Assembly: GCA_937877025.1 (NCBI GenBank)
Contig: CALEGE010000029.1
Span: 13,696 to 77,695, forward strand
Direction of reading: 5' to 3'
Length of the DNA: 64,000 nucleotides
DNA from: an uncultured Spirochaetia bacterium
Lineage (GTDB): Bacteria > Spirochaetota > UBA4802 > UBA5368
This document shows, in pieces, positions 3,919 to 13,924 of this stretch. Numbering within the stretch: the first letter of the stretch is position 1; each line of letters starts with the position of its first letter. Under the pieces are notes generated by a model that was not told the DNA's origin, searched no databases, and saw only the letters and a program-made list of their open reading frames with translations. Made by a program: the position numbers and the translations under genes.

Positions 3919-4779
3919 ATGATTGAATTTGGAAATATCAAACGGCTTAACGAGGATGAGTTTAAAAAATTTGCAAAACTTGTATATGAAGAAAGCGGTA
4001 TTTTTTTAAAGGACTCCAAAATCACGTTGCTTTCCAACAGGCTTCGAAAACGGTTGCAGGCGCTCGATATCGATTCTTTCAGGGAATATTATGATTATAT
4101 TCAGAATTTTCCGGACAAGGCGAAAGAAATAGAACAGCTGCTCGATGTTGTCTCGACAAATGAAACCTATTTTTTCCGAAACGAGCGGCAGTTCGAAGCG
4201 CTTGAAAAATACTGCCTCCCCGATCTTGCGAGCAAGAAGACCGACAAAACGCTTAAAATATGGAGTGCCGGGTGCTCGACGGGGGAGGAGCCGTATACGA
4301 TCGCGATCTGTATTCTCGAATGTCAGCACCTGTTTGCGGGATGGGACATCGAGATTATCGCTACCGATATCGCGCCGTCCGTGCTGGATTTCGCGCGGAA
4401 AGGCGAATATTCGGGCCGGAGGATTGAAAAAGTTCCGCCCGGTATACTACAGAAGTACTTTACACGTGACGCGGAGTATCCTGAAGTGTATACCGTCAAA
4501 GACAGGGTGCGGAAAATGGCGAGATTTTATTATCTCAACCTGTTTAAAAATCCGTATCCGAAAAACATGGATATTATATTCTGCAGAAACGTGATGATAT
4601 ATTTTGACAGAGAGCACCAGAAGAGGCTCGTGGCGGGATTTCACAATTCGCTGTCAAAGCACGGGTATCTGTTCATCGGCCATTCCGAAACGCTGCATTC
4701 TATTTCTGAAGATTTTATGTACGTGAAGCTTCTGGATTCGCCTGTGTATGTGCCAAGGGAGAGTGGAAATGAATTTTAG
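3919..4779 (+). CDS. cheR: Chemotaxis protein methyltransferase CheR
   Basis: CheR N-terminal helical domain plus SAM-binding fold (LKIWSAGCSTGEEPYTIAI, CRNVMIYFD). Confidence 0.9.
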   Translation: MIEFGNIKRLNEDEFKKFAKLVYEESGIFLKDSKITLLSNRLRKRLQALDIDSFREYYDYIQNFPDKAKEIEQLLDVVSTNETYFFRNERQFEALEKYCLPDLASKKTDKTLKIWSAGCSTGEEPYTIAICILECQHLFAGWDIEIIATDIAPSVLDFARKGEYSGRRIEKVPPGILQKYFTRDAEYPEVYTVKDRVRKMARFYYLNLFKNPYPKNMDIIFCRNVMIYFDREHQKRLVAGFHNSLSKHGYLFIGHSETLHSISEDFMYVKLLDSPVYVPRESGNEF

Positions 4780-5248
4780 GATGGTTACCATCGGTATTGC
4801 CGACCTGGGAGTGGCCGGTTCGCCGGATATTCTGCGGACGATACTTGGATCGTGTGTCGGCATCTGCCTGTACGATCAGACGACGCGCCTGGCGGGGATG
4901 GCGCATATCATGCTGCCCGAAATGAAAGACAGAAATTCGAACGCCAGGAAGTACGCCGCTACGGCCATACCGATGCTGATCGGGGAGATGGAAAAATCCG
5001 GCGCCGACAGCGCAAGAATCGTGGCGAAGATCGTGGGCGGCGCTGCGATGTTCAAAATATCCGAAAACAGCATTATGGGCGAAATAGGAAAGAACAACGT
5101 GAAAAAGGTGCGGGAGGTGCTCGAAGAGCAACGCATAGAAATAATTGCGGAGGATGTCGGCGGTGATTACGGCAGGACAATCGATTTTTACTCGGAAGAC
5201 GGACGTCTGAAAATCAAATCGCTGGGCCGCCCAGAAAAGGTGATATGA
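4769..5248 (+). CDS. cheD: Chemoreceptor glutamine deamidase CheD
   Basis: CheD signature (ILGSCVGICLYD). ATG at 4769 has an SD (GGGAGAG) and overlaps the cheR stop (ATGAATTTTAG). The ORF-track start at 4748 is probably too early. Confidence 0.85.
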   Translation: MNFRMVTIGIADLGVAGSPDILRTILGSCVGICLYDQTTRLAGMAHIMLPEMKDRNSNARKYAATAIPMLIGEMEKSGADSARIVAKIVGGAAMFKISENSIMGEIGKNNVKKVREVLEEQRIEIIAEDVGGDYGRTIDFYSEDGRLKIKSLGRPEKVI

Positions 5249-6989: not shown

Positions 6990-7179
6990 GCTGATTTCAT
7001 ATAACCAGAACCGGTATATTTTTTCGCGGGCCAATATGGTAATGGTTGACCGTCTCGGGAATATAAAAGATTATCCCGAAAAGGAAGAGAACTGGAAACT
7101 CGTTCCGAATATCCTCAATATGGTTCTGAACGAGAAGCTGCATTATAACTGGAGTTGTAACTGGAAAGATGAGGAGTAA
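6964..7179 (+). CDS. rpoZ: DNA-directed RNA polymerase omega subunit (probable)
   Basis: 71 aa. [27 protein letters not shown] aligns with the RpoZ N-terminal helix (…[25 protein letters not shown]). Conserved position after gmk. Confidence 0.55.
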   Translation: MKLIIPLDKLISYNQNRYIFSRANMVMVDRLGNIKDYPEKEENWKLVPNILNMVLNEKLHYNWSCNWKDEE

Positions 7180-8138
7180 TTATAGTCTGCGTTCGTGCGG
7201 CTGTTCATAATTCTAACGAACTGAGGGATACAGAAGCCATCAAAGCCGTCGTACTACTCGGGCCGACCGCGTCTGGAAAAACCGGCGTATCGCTTGAGCT
7301 TGCGGGAACTGAGTTCGAGATAATTTCCGCCGATTCGGTGCAGGTGTACCGGGGCCTTGACATAGGCAGCGGCAAACCATCGCTGGAACAACGGCAAAAA
7401 ATCGCGCATCATTGCATAGATATTGTCGATCCCGATTACAGGTTTACCGCAGGCGATTTTTGCCGGGAGGCGTTCAGCGCCTGCGAAACGATACGCAAAA
7501 GCGGGAGGATACCGCTTTTCGTCGGCGGTACGGGGCTGTATATCGATTCCTTTTTCAAGGGGATTTCGTCAATTCCGGAAATAGCAAGCACCGTGAAAGA
7601 GGTGCTCGAGCGCGAACTGGATGAGCGCGGCCTTGACAAGCTTTATAGGGAGTTGTTGTCGTGCGATCCGGTGTTTGCCGGGAGGGTTCATTGCAATGAC
7701 CGCCAGAGAATCCTTCGCGGGCTTGAGGTGTACAGGGGCACCGGCAGGCCATTGAGCTGGTTTTTTGGCAATAAAGAAGGACATGAGTCGGCGGAAACCC
7801 TGTATATCGGGCTTAATCTTGACAGGGCTGCGCTGATCGACAGGATACATTGCCGCGTTGATGACATGATCGGGGCGGGATTTGTCGAGGAGGTTGCGAG
7901 ATTGCGTGAAATGGGATACGGGCCCGGCCTGAACTCGATGAAGTCAATAGGTTACGCGGAATTGAATGCGTACCTCGACGGGCGGTTGTCGCTCGAAGAG
8001 GCGGTTGAGGCAATCAAGATCGAGACGCGAAAATACGCCAAGCGGCAGATGACATGGTTCAAAAAAAATGGGCGCGTCACATGGTTTCGTTATTTTGAAA
8101 TTGAAAAAATAAGGTCGCTGGTATATACTTGGCTCTAA
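7179..8138 (+). CDS. miaA: tRNA dimethylallyltransferase MiaA (start codon uncertain)
   Basis: P-loop VVLLGPTASGKT lies in frame upstream of the ORF-track start (7338, a GTG inside the gene). No ATG/GTG/TTG in any frame between the rpoZ stop (7170-7172 in this frame) and the P-loop. Candidate starts are ATT 7179, ATA 7182 and CTG 7221. Confidence 0.8.
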   Translation: MIVCVRAAVHNSNELRDTEAIKAVVLLGPTASGKTGVSLELAGTEFEIISADSVQVYRGLDIGSGKPSLEQRQKIAHHCIDIVDPDYRFTAGDFCREAFSACETIRKSGRIPLFVGGTGLYIDSFFKGISSIPEIASTVKEVLERELDERGLDKLYRELLSCDPVFAGRVHCNDRQRILRGLEVYRGTGRPLSWFFGNKEGHESAETLYIGLNLDRAALIDRIHCRVDDMIGAGFVEEVARLREMGYGPGLNSMKSIGYAELNAYLDGRLSLEEAVEAIKIETRKYAKRQMTWFKKNGRVTWFRYFEIEKIRSLVYTWL

Positions 8139-8180: not shown

Positions 8181-8414
8181 ATGGTGAAACAAACAAAAAA
8201 TTTGCAGGATACTATTTTGAATCTTGCGCGAAAAGAAAAACTTGAAATTACCATCTATCTGGTAAACGGGGTTCCCATCAAGGGGAGGGTGCTGAGTTTT
8301 GATAATTTTACCATCCTGATTGAAGTGGATAAAAAACAGAACATGATTTACAAGCATGCGATATCGACGATAGTGCCGTCAAGACCGCTGCAATACAGGG
8401 AAGAAGAGGCGTAG
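8181..8414 (+). CDS. hfq: RNA chaperone Hfq
   Basis: Sm1/Sm2 motifs ([27 protein letters not shown]...[12 protein letters not shown]). miaA-hfq synteny. Confidence 0.95.
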
Positions 8415-8432: not shown

Positions 8433-9329
8433 ATGAAGAAGTCACGATGGAAATTATTTCTGCTCCTCGTAGCCGCAATGGGGGGATATCTGTACATAAT
8501 GTGCGTGGCGGTTATTGCGCCCGGCCGTTTCGGCGTTGCACACGACAGGGATACAGGCAGTTTCCGTTTTTTACCGTCGGGATTCAATTTTCTATGGCAG
8601 GGCGTCGTGCCGCAGCGGATTAGCGTCCGTGACTATGGTGCGAGGAATTCTGAGATCATAACGGCTAAAGTCCCCGTGCCGCCGCTCGGTGAATTAAAAA
8701 GTGATTATTATTCCATATCGTTTCCCGTCAGCGTTATATACGAGATTGATGCGAGACGGCTGGCGGTTAATGCCGGCTCGGTATGGTCGAGCGCCGCATC
8801 GGTAACGGCCGCCGTTTCAAGGGCGTTTGAAACATCCCTTGAAAGAGAGTTGTCGCGGTGGATATCGCCCTTATACGGCAGATATGCGCTACTCAATAAC
8901 CGCGACCGGATACTGCACAATGCCGCAGAGGGCGCCTCAAGGTATTGTGCAGGTGTCGGTATTACCATCATTGCAGTTGAGCTTGCAGGCGCGGTAATTG
9001 CGCCGGATGAGCGTACCATTGCAGAGGGCATGGCGTTTTACAGCGAGATGCGAATGATAGAAAGAAATAATAAAAAAGAGCTGCTGTTTCTCGGCACAAC
9101 GCTTGAAAAGGACAGGCAGTTGAGAAAAGACTACTTCGAAAAGCTCAATGAAATGTCAAAAATAATTAAGGCAAATCCGGACATGCTGAAATATATTTAT
9201 ATTGACAAGATGGCCGGTAATGTGAAAGTGATAATTGCGCCGGAAAAGTCAGGCATGCCGTTTGGGTTTGACTACGTTGCGCCGGAAAAACCGGCACAAA
9301 GAAAGGGAGAAATTGACAACCTTAGATAA
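8433..9329 (+). CDS. Membrane-anchored SPFH/band-7-like protein (HflC/HflK-like), tentative
   Basis: N-terminal TM. Downstream region resembles the SPFH fold. Sits immediately after hfq, where hflK/hflC lie in enterobacteria. Similarity is judged by eye only. Confidence 0.4.
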   Translation: MKKSRWKLFLLLVAAMGGYLYIMCVAVIAPGRFGVAHDRDTGSFRFLPSGFNFLWQGVVPQRISVRDYGARNSEIITAKVPVPPLGELKSDYYSISFPVSVIYEIDARRLAVNAGSVWSSAASVTAAVSRAFETSLERELSRWISPLYGRYALLNNRDRILHNAAEGASRYCAGVGITIIAVELAGAVIAPDERTIAEGMAFYSEMRMIERNNKKELLFLGTTLEKDRQLRKDYFEKLNEMSKIIKANPDMLKYIYIDKMAGNVKVIIAPEKSGMPFGFDYVAPEKPAQRKGEIDNLR

Positions 9330-9368
9330 GCGATAAGGTGGGTGAGAAATTTTATAAAGGAGAAGAGT

Positions 9369-9458
9369 ATGCCTTGCGGTAGAAAGAAAAAAAGGAAGAA
9401 GATTGCGAACCATAAAAGAAAAAAAAGACGACGTCAGAATCGTCATAAGAAGAAATAA
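9369..9458 (+). CDS. 29-aa Lys/Arg-rich micro-protein, ribosomal bS22/AURKAIP1-like (not in ORF track)
   Basis: MPCGRKKKRKKIANHKRKKRRRQNRHKKK. Strong SD (AAAGGAG) 6-7 nt upstream; intrinsic terminator 25 nt downstream. Composition and pattern match the mycobacterial/Bacteroidia bS22 family (…[25 protein letters not shown]…). Confidence 0.5.
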   Translation: MPCGRKKKRKKIANHKRKKRRRQNRHKKK

Positions 9459-9482
9459 TAGGGTGAAACGTTAAAGTTAACA

Positions 9483-9528
9483 GAAAAGATTGGTTGTGCC
9501 GTGCGGTATGCCAATCTTTTCTTTTTAT
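9483..9528 (+). terminator. Rho-independent terminator after the micro-ORF
   Basis: 12-bp stem AGAAAAGATTGG / CCAATCTTTTCT, 16-nt loop, then TTTTTAT. Confidence 0.55.
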
Positions 9529-9546
9529 GGGCGGGGCGGAATAACC

Positions 9547-10272
9547 ATGAAAAAAAGTCGTATAATGAATGTGACTTTAAAAACGGAAACGAAGAAGTCC
9601 GCGTGGAAAAGAAGGCCGTCCGAGATCAGGGGATATCAGGCTGCGATCTATATGAATACGGAAAGCGGCGACTATCTCCGGGTAGATTACAATCTGCGGG
9701 AGCGGAAGATCCGCGTGTATCTCGAAGATTCCGAGGAAGGCGGAAATCCGTATTATGCCGTCATTACACACGGAAAAATAACCGCGCAACGGAATGCGAC
9801 GTCCGGGCGCGCTTTGGATGTGACGGGGAAAATTAGAAAGCGCGCGGCCCTGTTTGCGACAATATCGAACAAGGAAGTAAAGCAAACGATCTCTACCGCG
9901 TTTGGACTGAAGCAGCAAAAGCCCGAACCCGAAAAGAATGTCGCCAAAAATGAGCGTATAAAGGAAACAAAGCGACGCTATTTTAAAAATGAACAGGCCT
10001 CGTCGCTTGCATCGCAGGCGGGGTCGCTTGTTTCCCCCACGCAGCGCGTTTTTTTCGAATTGGCGGATATCGTGACGGGCGGTCTTCTCGGTTCGTCCGC
10101 CTTTCTCTATTTCAAGAGCTATATTGCGGCCGGTATCGTGTTGGCCGTATTCGGCGTGGCAACCGGTGTTGTGGATATATTTTTGCGGGGGAGGCCGCCA
10201 TCCTTTGTAAAAATGCTGCTTCTCATTATTACCGGCATGGCAAGCTATATTTACGGCTATTATATATATTGA
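9547..10272 (+). CDS. Hypothetical protein with basic N-terminal region and two C-terminal TM helices
   Basis: The ORF-track start (9490) lies inside the upstream terminator hairpin. ATG 9547 (MKKSRIMNV...) is the plausible start. C-terminal hydrophobic helices (GIVLAVFGVATGVV..., MLLLIITGMASYIYGYYIY). Confidence 0.45.
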   Translation: MKKSRIMNVTLKTETKKSAWKRRPSEIRGYQAAIYMNTESGDYLRVDYNLRERKIRVYLEDSEEGGNPYYAVITHGKITAQRNATSGRALDVTGKIRKRAALFATISNKEVKQTISTAFGLKQQKPEPEKNVAKNERIKETKRRYFKNEQASSLASQAGSLVSPTQRVFFELADIVTGGLLGSSAFLYFKSYIAAGIVLAVFGVATGVVDIFLRGRPPSFVKMLLLIITGMASYIYGYYIY

Positions 10273-12751: not shown

Positions 12752-13924
12752 TCAGTATGCCGCGATCAGTATTGTTTCCATTTCGTCCCTGGTCAGGGGG
12801 CGCGGGGCGTTTTCTATAAACGGGTACGTAAGGGCGATCTCCGCCACGCGTGAAAATTCGGACTTCCCGATGTCGAACAGCGACAGCCGCTGCGGTATGT
12901 CGATGTCGATTTCCAGCTTTCGTACGCCCTCGACCGCCTTGATCGCGGCCTCGATAACGGTGATCTCCTTTACGTCCTCGTCCATAACCTTCGACATCTG
13001 TACGTATTTGCCCGGCGATGAGGTGAGGTTGTATTCCATGATATGCGGCAATATGACGCCCATTGCGTGCGTGACAGGTATGCTGGTGCGCGATGACAGC
13101 GCCAGCGACAGCGCAAGCGTTATCGAGAGGTTTGCGACCGAAAACGCAACGCCCGACATCACCGACGCGAGCGCAAGCTGTGCGCGCGCCGCCGTGTTCT
13201 GCGGCTCCCTGAAGGCGACAGGGAGATTTTTAAAAATGAGGTCAATGGATTTCAGGGCATAGGTGTTGATCATGCCGTTGTTGATTTTCGATATTACCGA
13301 CTCTGTGGCGAGGGCGAGGCTGCCGACGCTGCTGTAGGCCGTCGATTCGTCATCGATGATGGTCGCTATCTGGGGGTCGATGATAGAGGCCTTCGGAAAC
13401 AGGTATTTATGCGCATACACATTCTTCATCCGGTACTGAATCTCGTCGACATACAGCATCGGAAGGATTTCAAAACCGACCGACGGATATGCGGGTATGG
13501 TGACAAGGTTGACCGGCGGGCTGACCTCGGGGTGTTCGAACAGGTTTTCGCAGAAAAGATAATTGTTCATGAGTAAGGCGACCGCTTTTGCCGCGTTCAT
13601 CGATTCTATGCCGCCGAACCCGATGATCATATCGCAGTGCGTTTTTTTCGCGAAATAGACCGCCGAGTCAATATACTCTGTATCGGGCGTGGCGCTCATT
13701 TCATCGTAAATAATGAAACCGAGCGAGGATTTCGCGATGCTGCGGGATATCTTTTCGATGGCGTCGGAAAATTTTGCGAGGTCCTGGTCGGTGGTTATCA
13801 GTACGGCGCGCGAACCGAAATTTTTTAATATTCCGCCCGCCTCGTTAATGATGTCCTGCTTTAGATAGATTTCGCTTGGCAGATGGAAATCGGGGATAAC
13901 TTCTTTTTTTAACGCTGTCGTCAT
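12752..13924 (-). CDS. Iron-containing alcohol dehydrogenase-family protein (divergent)
   Basis: Fe-ADH/DHQS-like fold with a variant GGGS dinucleotide motif (IGFGGIESMNAAKAV). Starts 8 nt after the flgM terminator T-tract and ends 4 nt before larB, so it looks co-transcribed with larB-larC. Confidence 0.7.
   Translation of the reverse strand: MTTALKKEVIPDFHLPSEIYLKQDIINEAGGILKNFGSRAVLITTDQDLAKFSDAIEKISRSIAKSSLGFIIYDEMSATPDTEYIDSAVYFAKKTHCDMIIGFGGIESMNAAKAVALLMNNYLFCENLFEHPEVSPPVNLVTIPAYPSVGFEILPMLYVDEIQYRMKNVYAHKYLFPKASIIDPQIATIIDDESTAYSSVGSLALATESVISKINNGMINTYALKSIDLIFKNLPVAFREPQNTAARAQLALASVMSGVAFSVANLSITLALSLALSSRTSIPVTHAMGVILPHIMEYNLTSSPGKYVQMSKVMDEDVKEITVIEAAIKAVEGVRKLEIDIDIPQRLSLFDIGKSEFSRVAEIALTYPFIENAPRPLTRDEMETILIAAY

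Follow-up and report, generated by a model that had tools for sequence, protein, structure and literature searches.

We analysed a stretch of 64,000 nucleotides (nt) of DNA from an uncultured Spirochaetia bacterium (positions 13,696 to 77,695 of contig CALEGE010000029.1; hereafter the window), and within it a 90-nt open reading frame (ORF) on the forward strand at 9369–9458. This micro-ORF follows hfq and a gene for an SPFH-like protein and precedes a gene for a predicted membrane protein, the neighbours that an earlier note on this DNA had described. It comprises 29 codons, from ATG 9369 to the TAA stop at 9456–9458, and encodes the 29-residue peptide MPCGRKKKRKKIANHKRKKRRRQNRHKKK, in which 18 residues (62%) are Lys or Arg; the ORF and its translation are as that note had reported them. 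The Shine-Dalgarno (SD) sequence AAAGGAG, which had been described as ideally spaced, occupies 9356–9362 on the same strand, 6 nt upstream of the ATG. An alternative start at GTG 9342, giving 38 residues, was rejected: it would contain the SD itself and has no counterpart in relatives.

The peptide and its ribosome-bound homologs

Searching the peptide against all PDB chains with phmmer returned three matches, all of them full-length and all ribosomal protein bS22: that of Borrelia burgdorferi, modelled in a 70S electron cryomicroscopy (cryo-EM) map (8fmw_V; E 5.3e-8, 22/28 identical, 79%), that of Flavobacterium johnsoniae (7jil_5; E 1.5e-6, 72% identity) and that of Porphyromonas gingivalis (9i5v_10; E 8.3e-5, 69% identity). 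What had been noticed from the sequence as a resemblance to bS22 is thus close homology (69–79%) to chains modelled in three bacterial ribosome structures. We aligned nine bS22 peptides of Spirochaetota and Bacteroidota (alignment A1, also the source of our search profile), finding that all 16 invariant columns are present in the window peptide, which likewise fits the pattern of the type, M-P-x-G-x-K-x-K-x-x-K-x3-HKRKK-x4-NRHKK, in a chain of about 28–34 residues with about 60% Lys/Arg. The Borrelia, Flavobacterium and Porphyromonas proteins were each built de novo into unassigned helical density of the 30S subunit (PMC10618245, PMC7797042, PMC12123416), and the Borrelia gene, bb0822, which has a GUG start and is unannotated in the genome, was verified by side-chain density (PMC10618245); its authors predicted bS22 in other bacteria and more unannotated genes to come (PMC10618245). 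Together with the codon conservation and synteny described below, these matches lead us to conclude with high confidence that the micro-ORF at 9369–9458 very probably encodes the ribosomal protein bS22 of this uncultured member of the Spirochaetota, one that belongs to the Bacteroidota/spirochaete sequence type. As a kind, bS22 is already known from structures, since 2020 in Bacteroidota and since 2023 in a spirochaete; what is new here is one more member, from an uncultured Spirochaetota lineage.

The Borrelia protein (bb0822; 8FMW chain V) comes from the same phylum and shares with the window peptide the N-terminal MPCGRK, a similar length and charge, and a gene that comes after miaA and runs in its direction. 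The Borrelia gene has a GTG start about 63 nt after miaA, whereas the window gene starts with ATG and has hfq and the SPFH gene interposed; Borrelia also lacks the conserved terminator hairpin that follows bS22 in the window clade. The Bacteroidota proteins (F. johnsoniae Fjoh_1533, 7JIL; P. gingivalis, 9I5V/9I5X) share 69–72% full-length identity with the window peptide, including the invariant HKRKK and NRHKK, but differ in having Ser or Asn at position 3, where the window peptide has Cys, and Lys at position 5; in their ribosomes, bS22 inserts between 16S h44 and h45 and contacts 23S H70. Bacteroidia bS22 genes are mostly without an SD (PMC7797042), unlike the window gene with its strong SD.

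Several points weigh against this assignment. The peptide has no significant match in Pfam or NCBIfam, and verified orthologs fail there too, as detailed in the next section. It is of low complexity, so its E-values need caution, a concern offset by the motif-level identity and the synteny. Its expression and its association with the ribosome in this organism would follow from what is known of its homologs, and the 64-kilobase (kb) window holds no 16S ribosomal RNA (rRNA), hence no view of the binding pocket.

Conservation in close relatives bears on whether the frame is translated at all. The SPFH-like protein has 14 relatives in a 5.8-billion-cluster collection, the named one being from a Spirochaetales metagenome bin, and we compared the contigs of eight that are not identical to it. 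All eight have the order cheR-cheD-yicC-remA-gmk-small ORF-miaA-hfq-SPFH, then a gap of about 200–260 nt and a gene for a 240-residue protein, with cheW next wherever the contig reaches that far (that of locus L010 ends before it). The micro-ORF is present in every one of these gaps, with an AAGGAG-type SD about 5–8 nt before the ATG, a start codon that always stands immediately 5' of a Pro codon, a conserved stop codon and, 3' of the stop, a hairpin with a T-run in all syntenic relatives. Conservation of the micro-ORF and its SD, which the earlier note had proposed as a check, is therefore found in all eight. The peptide is identical at 27–29 of 29 positions among them, against 30–44% identity for the SPFH protein and 53–65% for MiaA. 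At the nucleotide level, at least two codons occur at 28 of the 29 positions, with residue changes at positions 7, 10 and 23 only, and pairwise synonymous to non-synonymous codon differences run as high as 15:1 and 21:1. This pattern indicates a translated gene under strong purifying selection.

A very short, low-complexity frame that most gene callers skip could also be a chance untranslated frame in an A/G-rich intergenic spacer. We regard this as vanishingly improbable: variation at 28 of 29 codon positions with three residues changing effectively refutes it, the start, SD and stop are kept in all relatives, and the full-length homologs are ribosome-bound proteins. Moreover, a degenerate DNA pattern encoding the residues that are invariant in the bS22 peptide type matches once in the 64-kb window (9372–9452), once per related syntenic locus, and in 0 of 100 shuffles.

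The suspicion that gene callers often miss such a gene is borne out in the relatives, since public gene calls for ten syntenic loci include the bS22 ORF in one (L009) and miss it in eight. At the locus L007, the public call is a wrong ORF of 33 residues (4938–5039) that overlaps the true bS22 ORF (5003–5095) in another frame, so that the gene is mis-called there besides being missed elsewhere.

Relation to mycobacterial bS22 and mS38

The earlier note had likened the peptide to bS22 of mycobacteria and Bacteroidia and to mitochondrial mS38/AURKAIP1. The Bacteroidota side of this comparison, together with the spirochaete type, stands; similarity to mycobacterial bS22 or to mS38/AURKAIP1 was not found in sequence. 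Against Pfam PF08213 (COX24_C), the window peptide scores 8.1 bits (E 3.4), below the cut-off of 23, and it has no match to the NCBIfam model NF047430 (ribo_bS22) and no significant match in Pfam or NCBIfam overall. As controls, Mycobacterium smegmatis bS22 passes both models (46.2 bits for PF08213 and 62.6 bits for NF047430), while the cryo-EM-verified Borrelia and Flavobacterium proteins, as well as a cross-phylum consensus, match neither at E ≤ 10. Because verified bS22 proteins fail the same models, the negative result reflects a blind spot for the whole sequence type, and the AURKAIP1/COX24 profile search that had been suggested as a check, although it returned no significant score, is one that produces false negatives here.

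Direct comparisons gave the same picture. BLASTP of the window peptide against M. smegmatis bS22 yields an E-value of 7.1; a PDB search with the A1 profile of nine peptides (E ≤ 10) retrieves neither mycobacterial bS22 nor any mS38 chain; and M. smegmatis bS22, a query with exact matches to about 22 PDB entries, reaches mS38/AURKAIP1 weakly (E 0.1–6) and never 7jil, 8fmw or 9i5v. The supplement to the Borrelia study reports the same failure to link the two bS22 types, which have 19% identity (PMC10618245). The mycobacterial and actinobacterial proteins (5O5J, 5XYU, 8CRX; NF047430, PF08213) and mS38/AURKAIP1/Cox24 resemble the window type in size and charge and, according to the structural papers, in occupying the same 30S pocket, but no sequence similarity to the window type was detected.

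These observations leave room for the Bacteroidota/spirochaete type having arrived at the same rRNA pocket by convergence, as a structural analog of mycobacterial bS22, mS38/AURKAIP1 and COX24 and not their homolog. The P. gingivalis authors themselves raised convergence (PMC12123416), and it is consistent with the failed searches in both directions and with PF08213 and NF047430 detecting the mycobacterial protein and none of the window type. Yet both types sit in the same pocket as a bent helix that bends at the same place (PMC10618245, PMC7797042), peptides of about 30 residues dominated by Lys and Arg are too poor in signal for the question to be settled from sequence, and the depositors of 9i5v labelled the P. 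gingivalis protein 'AURKAIP1/COX24 domain-containing'. Weighing these, we consider convergence a serious possibility, while leaning slightly away from it. What links the mycobacterial and Bacteroidota/spirochaete proteins is structural: the shared pocket and the shared bent helix. We accordingly file the window gene under bS22 of the Bacteroidota/spirochaete type, and not under PF08213 or NF047430.

Distribution, miaA linkage and neighbouring genes

To place the gene more broadly, we ran the degenerate pattern on a collection with one genome per species, which gave at least 120 loci, and examined 130 loci overall; the figures that follow hold among the matches listed. At least 120 species-representative genomes, spread over many phyla, carry the type, each match being an ORF of 28–34 residues that starts M-P-[CSN]-G-R-K. 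Spirochaetota are represented by Borreliella, Borrelia, Treponema, Sphaerochaeta, a Leptospira-labelled metagenome-assembled genome (MAG) and many other MAGs, and Bacteroidota and their allies by Rhodothermales, Ignavibacteria, Saprospiraceae, Chitinophagales, Blattabacterium, Cardinium and Prosthecochloris. Matches were likewise obtained in Latescibacterota, Omnitrophota, Cloacimonadota, Calditrichota, Fidelibacterota, Fermentibacteria, Krumholzibacteriota and Eiseniibacteriota. Start codons at the 130 loci are ATG (100), GTG (28) and TTG (2). Outside the window clade, GTG predominates in Spirochaetota, including Borreliella and Borrelia. An SD of AAGGAG type is common across the 130 loci; it is absent at many Bacteroidota-type loci, and a clear GGAG is seen in Ignavibacteria, Spirochaetota and others.

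Using tblastn with the window's neighbour genes against these loci, we found miaA upstream of bS22 on the same strand at 23 of the 35 spirochaete-labelled loci, compared with 0 of the 85 loci of other phyla among the matches listed. The distance from miaA to bS22 is 63–320 nt at 18 loci, Borreliella and Borrelia among them, 649 nt at one, and about 1.3–1.4 kb at four in which hfq and the SPFH gene are interposed. Loci with miaA upstream include the Borreliella loci L012 and L049 (gap 63 nt), Borrelia L082, Treponema L084 and those of many Spirochaetia MAGs. The full order miaA-hfq-SPFH-bS22-X241, in which X241 is the gene for the 240-residue protein, is limited to the window clade (L001–L010, L067, L079, L107 and L125). 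In two Latescibacterota (L023, bS22 at 4535–4630; L036, 7003–7098), miaA follows bS22 at a distance of about 590 nt, the reverse of the spirochaete order; these are the only non-spirochaete loci with a miaA neighbour among the matches listed.

As miaA lies upstream across Spirochaetota, Borrelia included, the window gene is the positional ortholog of Borrelia bb0822. The older neighbour of bS22 is miaA, and in the window lineage hfq and the SPFH gene are inserted between the two. Linkage of miaA and bS22 in Spirochaetota thereby offers a simple positional marker for locating the gene.

The same comparison bears on whether the conserved basic peptide might have a non-ribosomal job here, for example in binding nucleic acids or in regulation, tied to Hfq or to the SPFH protein. 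Such a role would suit its position beside hfq and the SPFH gene, an arrangement particular to this clade, and its place in the ribosome of this organism is predicted. The peptide, however, is 79% identical to a chain in the Borrelia ribosome and keeps all 16 invariant residues, the same type occurs in many phyla that lack hfq or SPFH neighbours, and its older neighbour is miaA, all of which make a non-ribosomal role very unlikely. The earlier note had also spoken of an hfq-SPFH-microORF-membrane module; this is not supported, in that apart from the order conserved within the clade we found no link between these genes and bS22.

The neighbouring genes, all on the forward strand, were characterised individually. 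The gene miaA, for tRNA dimethylallyltransferase, is assigned to 7338–8138 by TIGR00174 (256 bits, matching from model position 33). From GTG 7338, its first canonical start, it encodes 266 residues, as in public calls, but its P-loop, GPTASGKT, is encoded in frame upstream of this GTG, at 7260–7283. The only candidate starts after the in-frame stop at 7170–7172 are near-cognate (ATT 7179 and ATA 7182); they sit 2–5 nt after GAGGAG (7171–7176), and ATT 7179 overlaps the TAA of the preceding ORF of 71 residues, reading 'TAATT' where 'TAATG' is usual. The true start of miaA is thus probably upstream, near 7179–7182, and this arrangement suggests a non-canonical, translationally coupled start. 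Next comes a canonical hfq, at 8181–8414 (TIGR02383, 101.8 bits; PF17209, 104.5 bits).

The product of 8433–9329, 298 residues long, scores 20.8 bits against Pfam Band_7, below the cut-off of 23.6, and its AlphaFold model (AF2; predicted local distance difference test, pLDDT, 80) has a transmembrane helix at residues 2–22, an alpha/beta domain and a 55-residue helix at 193–247. Foldseek gave 34 PDB matches for this model at E ≤ 1e-3, all of them SPFH-family or vault proteins, among them prohibitin (1.5e-9), HflK/C (7.5e-9), stomatin, erlin and flotillin. The predicted structure, with its transmembrane helix, SPFH domain and long coiled-coil helix, thus identifies the product as an SPFH-family membrane protein. 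An identical public protein (P0001) has 276 residues from a start at 8499, whereas relatives have 289–302 residues and align from ATG 8433, which lies 19 nt past the hfq stop, as in relatives, and includes the transmembrane helix; the start at 8433, which also agrees with relatives of 298–302 residues, is more likely than that at 8499. At the C-terminus (9309–9329), IDNL is invariant, the preceding Glu nearly so, and the final residue is Arg or Lys in 14 of 14 members, conservation in a tail that is predicted to be disordered (pLDDT about 40). Codons in this tail vary synonymously, which places the constraint on the protein and not on an embedded promoter, and the tail is a possible C-terminal interaction motif.

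Downstream of bS22, the gene at 9547–10272 encodes a protein of 241 residues to which we assign no function. An identical public protein is called at 241 residues and the family is about 240 residues long, so ATG 9547 is the real start. The protein has 179 relatives, nearly all labelled hypothetical and with Spirochaetes or Spirochaetota bins as named sources, and carries an invariant motif, W20-x2-RPSEI-x-GY. Its model is confident: a beta domain of six strands leads into three long helices at the C-terminus, which are probably membrane-spanning. Neither Pfam nor NCBIfam has a family for the protein, and the structural search gave no informative neighbour; it represents an uncharacterised lineage-specific family adjoining cheW.

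The gene order at the locus can be compared with the Escherichia coli operon miaA-hfq-hflX-hflK-hflC. The two share miaA, hfq and then an SPFH-family membrane protein, HflK/C being among the best fold matches of the window protein. They differ in that the window locus has just one SPFH gene, lacks hflX and carries bS22 at the end of the series, a gene that E. coli is without.

Terminator hairpin, transcription and proposed role

The earlier note had placed a clean intrinsic terminator after the micro-ORF, and folding agrees. A hairpin at 9482–9522, with 18 pairs, one bulge and a 4-nt loop, is followed by TTTTAT, the whole terminator-like element with its T-rich tail spanning 9482–9528 on the forward strand. 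Its folding energy is −21.7 kcal/mol (z −4.9), equalled by 0 of 200 shuffles, and termination in vivo at this stem and its UUUUAU tail is predicted. A simple consensus terminator scan did not flag the hairpin at 9482–9522; the bulge probably explains this miss. TTG 9490, the start of a mechanically derived ORF of 260 residues, lies inside the 5' arm, within GATTGG (9488–9493), as the note had observed of the ORF-track start.

We compared the hairpin in 12 clade sequences (the window, L004–L010, L067, L079, L107 and L125), finding conserved core arms, GATTGG (invariant) on the 5' side and CCAATC on the 3' side (with variants CCAGTC and TCAATC). In essentially all 12 sequences, 12 stem positions pair, and below the core there is one compensatory A-T/G-C position. 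The loop varies in sequence and length (12–18 nt) across the clade, and the surrounding spacer is unalignable. The GATTGG/CCAATC motif occurs once in the 64-kb window, was not found after bS22 in Borrelia, Treponema or the other spirochaetes examined, and no Rfam family matches 9482–9528. A terminator is the economical reading of this hairpin. Since ordinary terminators lose stem sequence over such distances (MiaA 51–65% identity), we also considered that it might be more than a terminator, namely a stable Hfq-associated small RNA derived from the 3' untranslated region, or a protein-binding or processing site; this is improbable, but if true, the hairpin could set bS22 levels or control how far transcription reads through into the membrane-protein gene and cheW downstream.

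A separate transcription unit starting at 9547, as the earlier note had proposed, is borne out as far as the translation start is concerned, but not as a separate unit. The hairpin lies 24 nt from ATG 9547, a spacing at which the downstream gene needs either read-through or a promoter overlapping the bS22 gene or its terminator, and a promoter scan at the locus did no better than shuffles, so we assign none. On the upstream side, the 39 nt that lead from the SPFH stop to the bS22 ATG contain no terminator-like structure, which makes co-transcription of bS22 with the upstream genes plausible.

Under the bS22 assignment, the peptide would be translated from its own SD, probably as the final cistron of a miaA-hfq-SPFH-bS22 transcript, or else from its own promoter, and transcription would most likely stop at the hairpin (9482–9528). 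By homology, the 29 residues would form a short bent helix once buried in an rRNA pocket near the decoding centre, lined by 16S h2, h27, h44 and h45, and would touch 23S H68/H70 across the subunit interface. There the peptide would neutralise rRNA charge, stabilise h44/h45 and add an intersubunit contact. The binding site and role are those described in the three structural studies (PMC10618245, PMC7797042, PMC12123416), and we infer ribosome incorporation and a structural role for the window peptide from the Borrelia, Flavobacterium and Porphyromonas proteins. In M. smegmatis, bS22 is reported to modulate the aminoglycoside site in h44, and its loss to raise kanamycin susceptibility (preprint, PMC10081302).

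In the ribosome, bS22 adjoins both the decoding centre and the h44 aminoglycoside site. A single further instance adds little biology, the Borrelia authors having foreseen that others would come to light. The wider meaning lies in annotation: PF08213 and the NCBIfam ribo_bS22 model are blind to a type that occurs in at least 120 genomes and in which roughly one gene in four has a GTG or TTG start, so that a ribosomal protein is probably overlooked or unnamed across much of the bacterial tree. A dedicated profile would mend this missed annotation.

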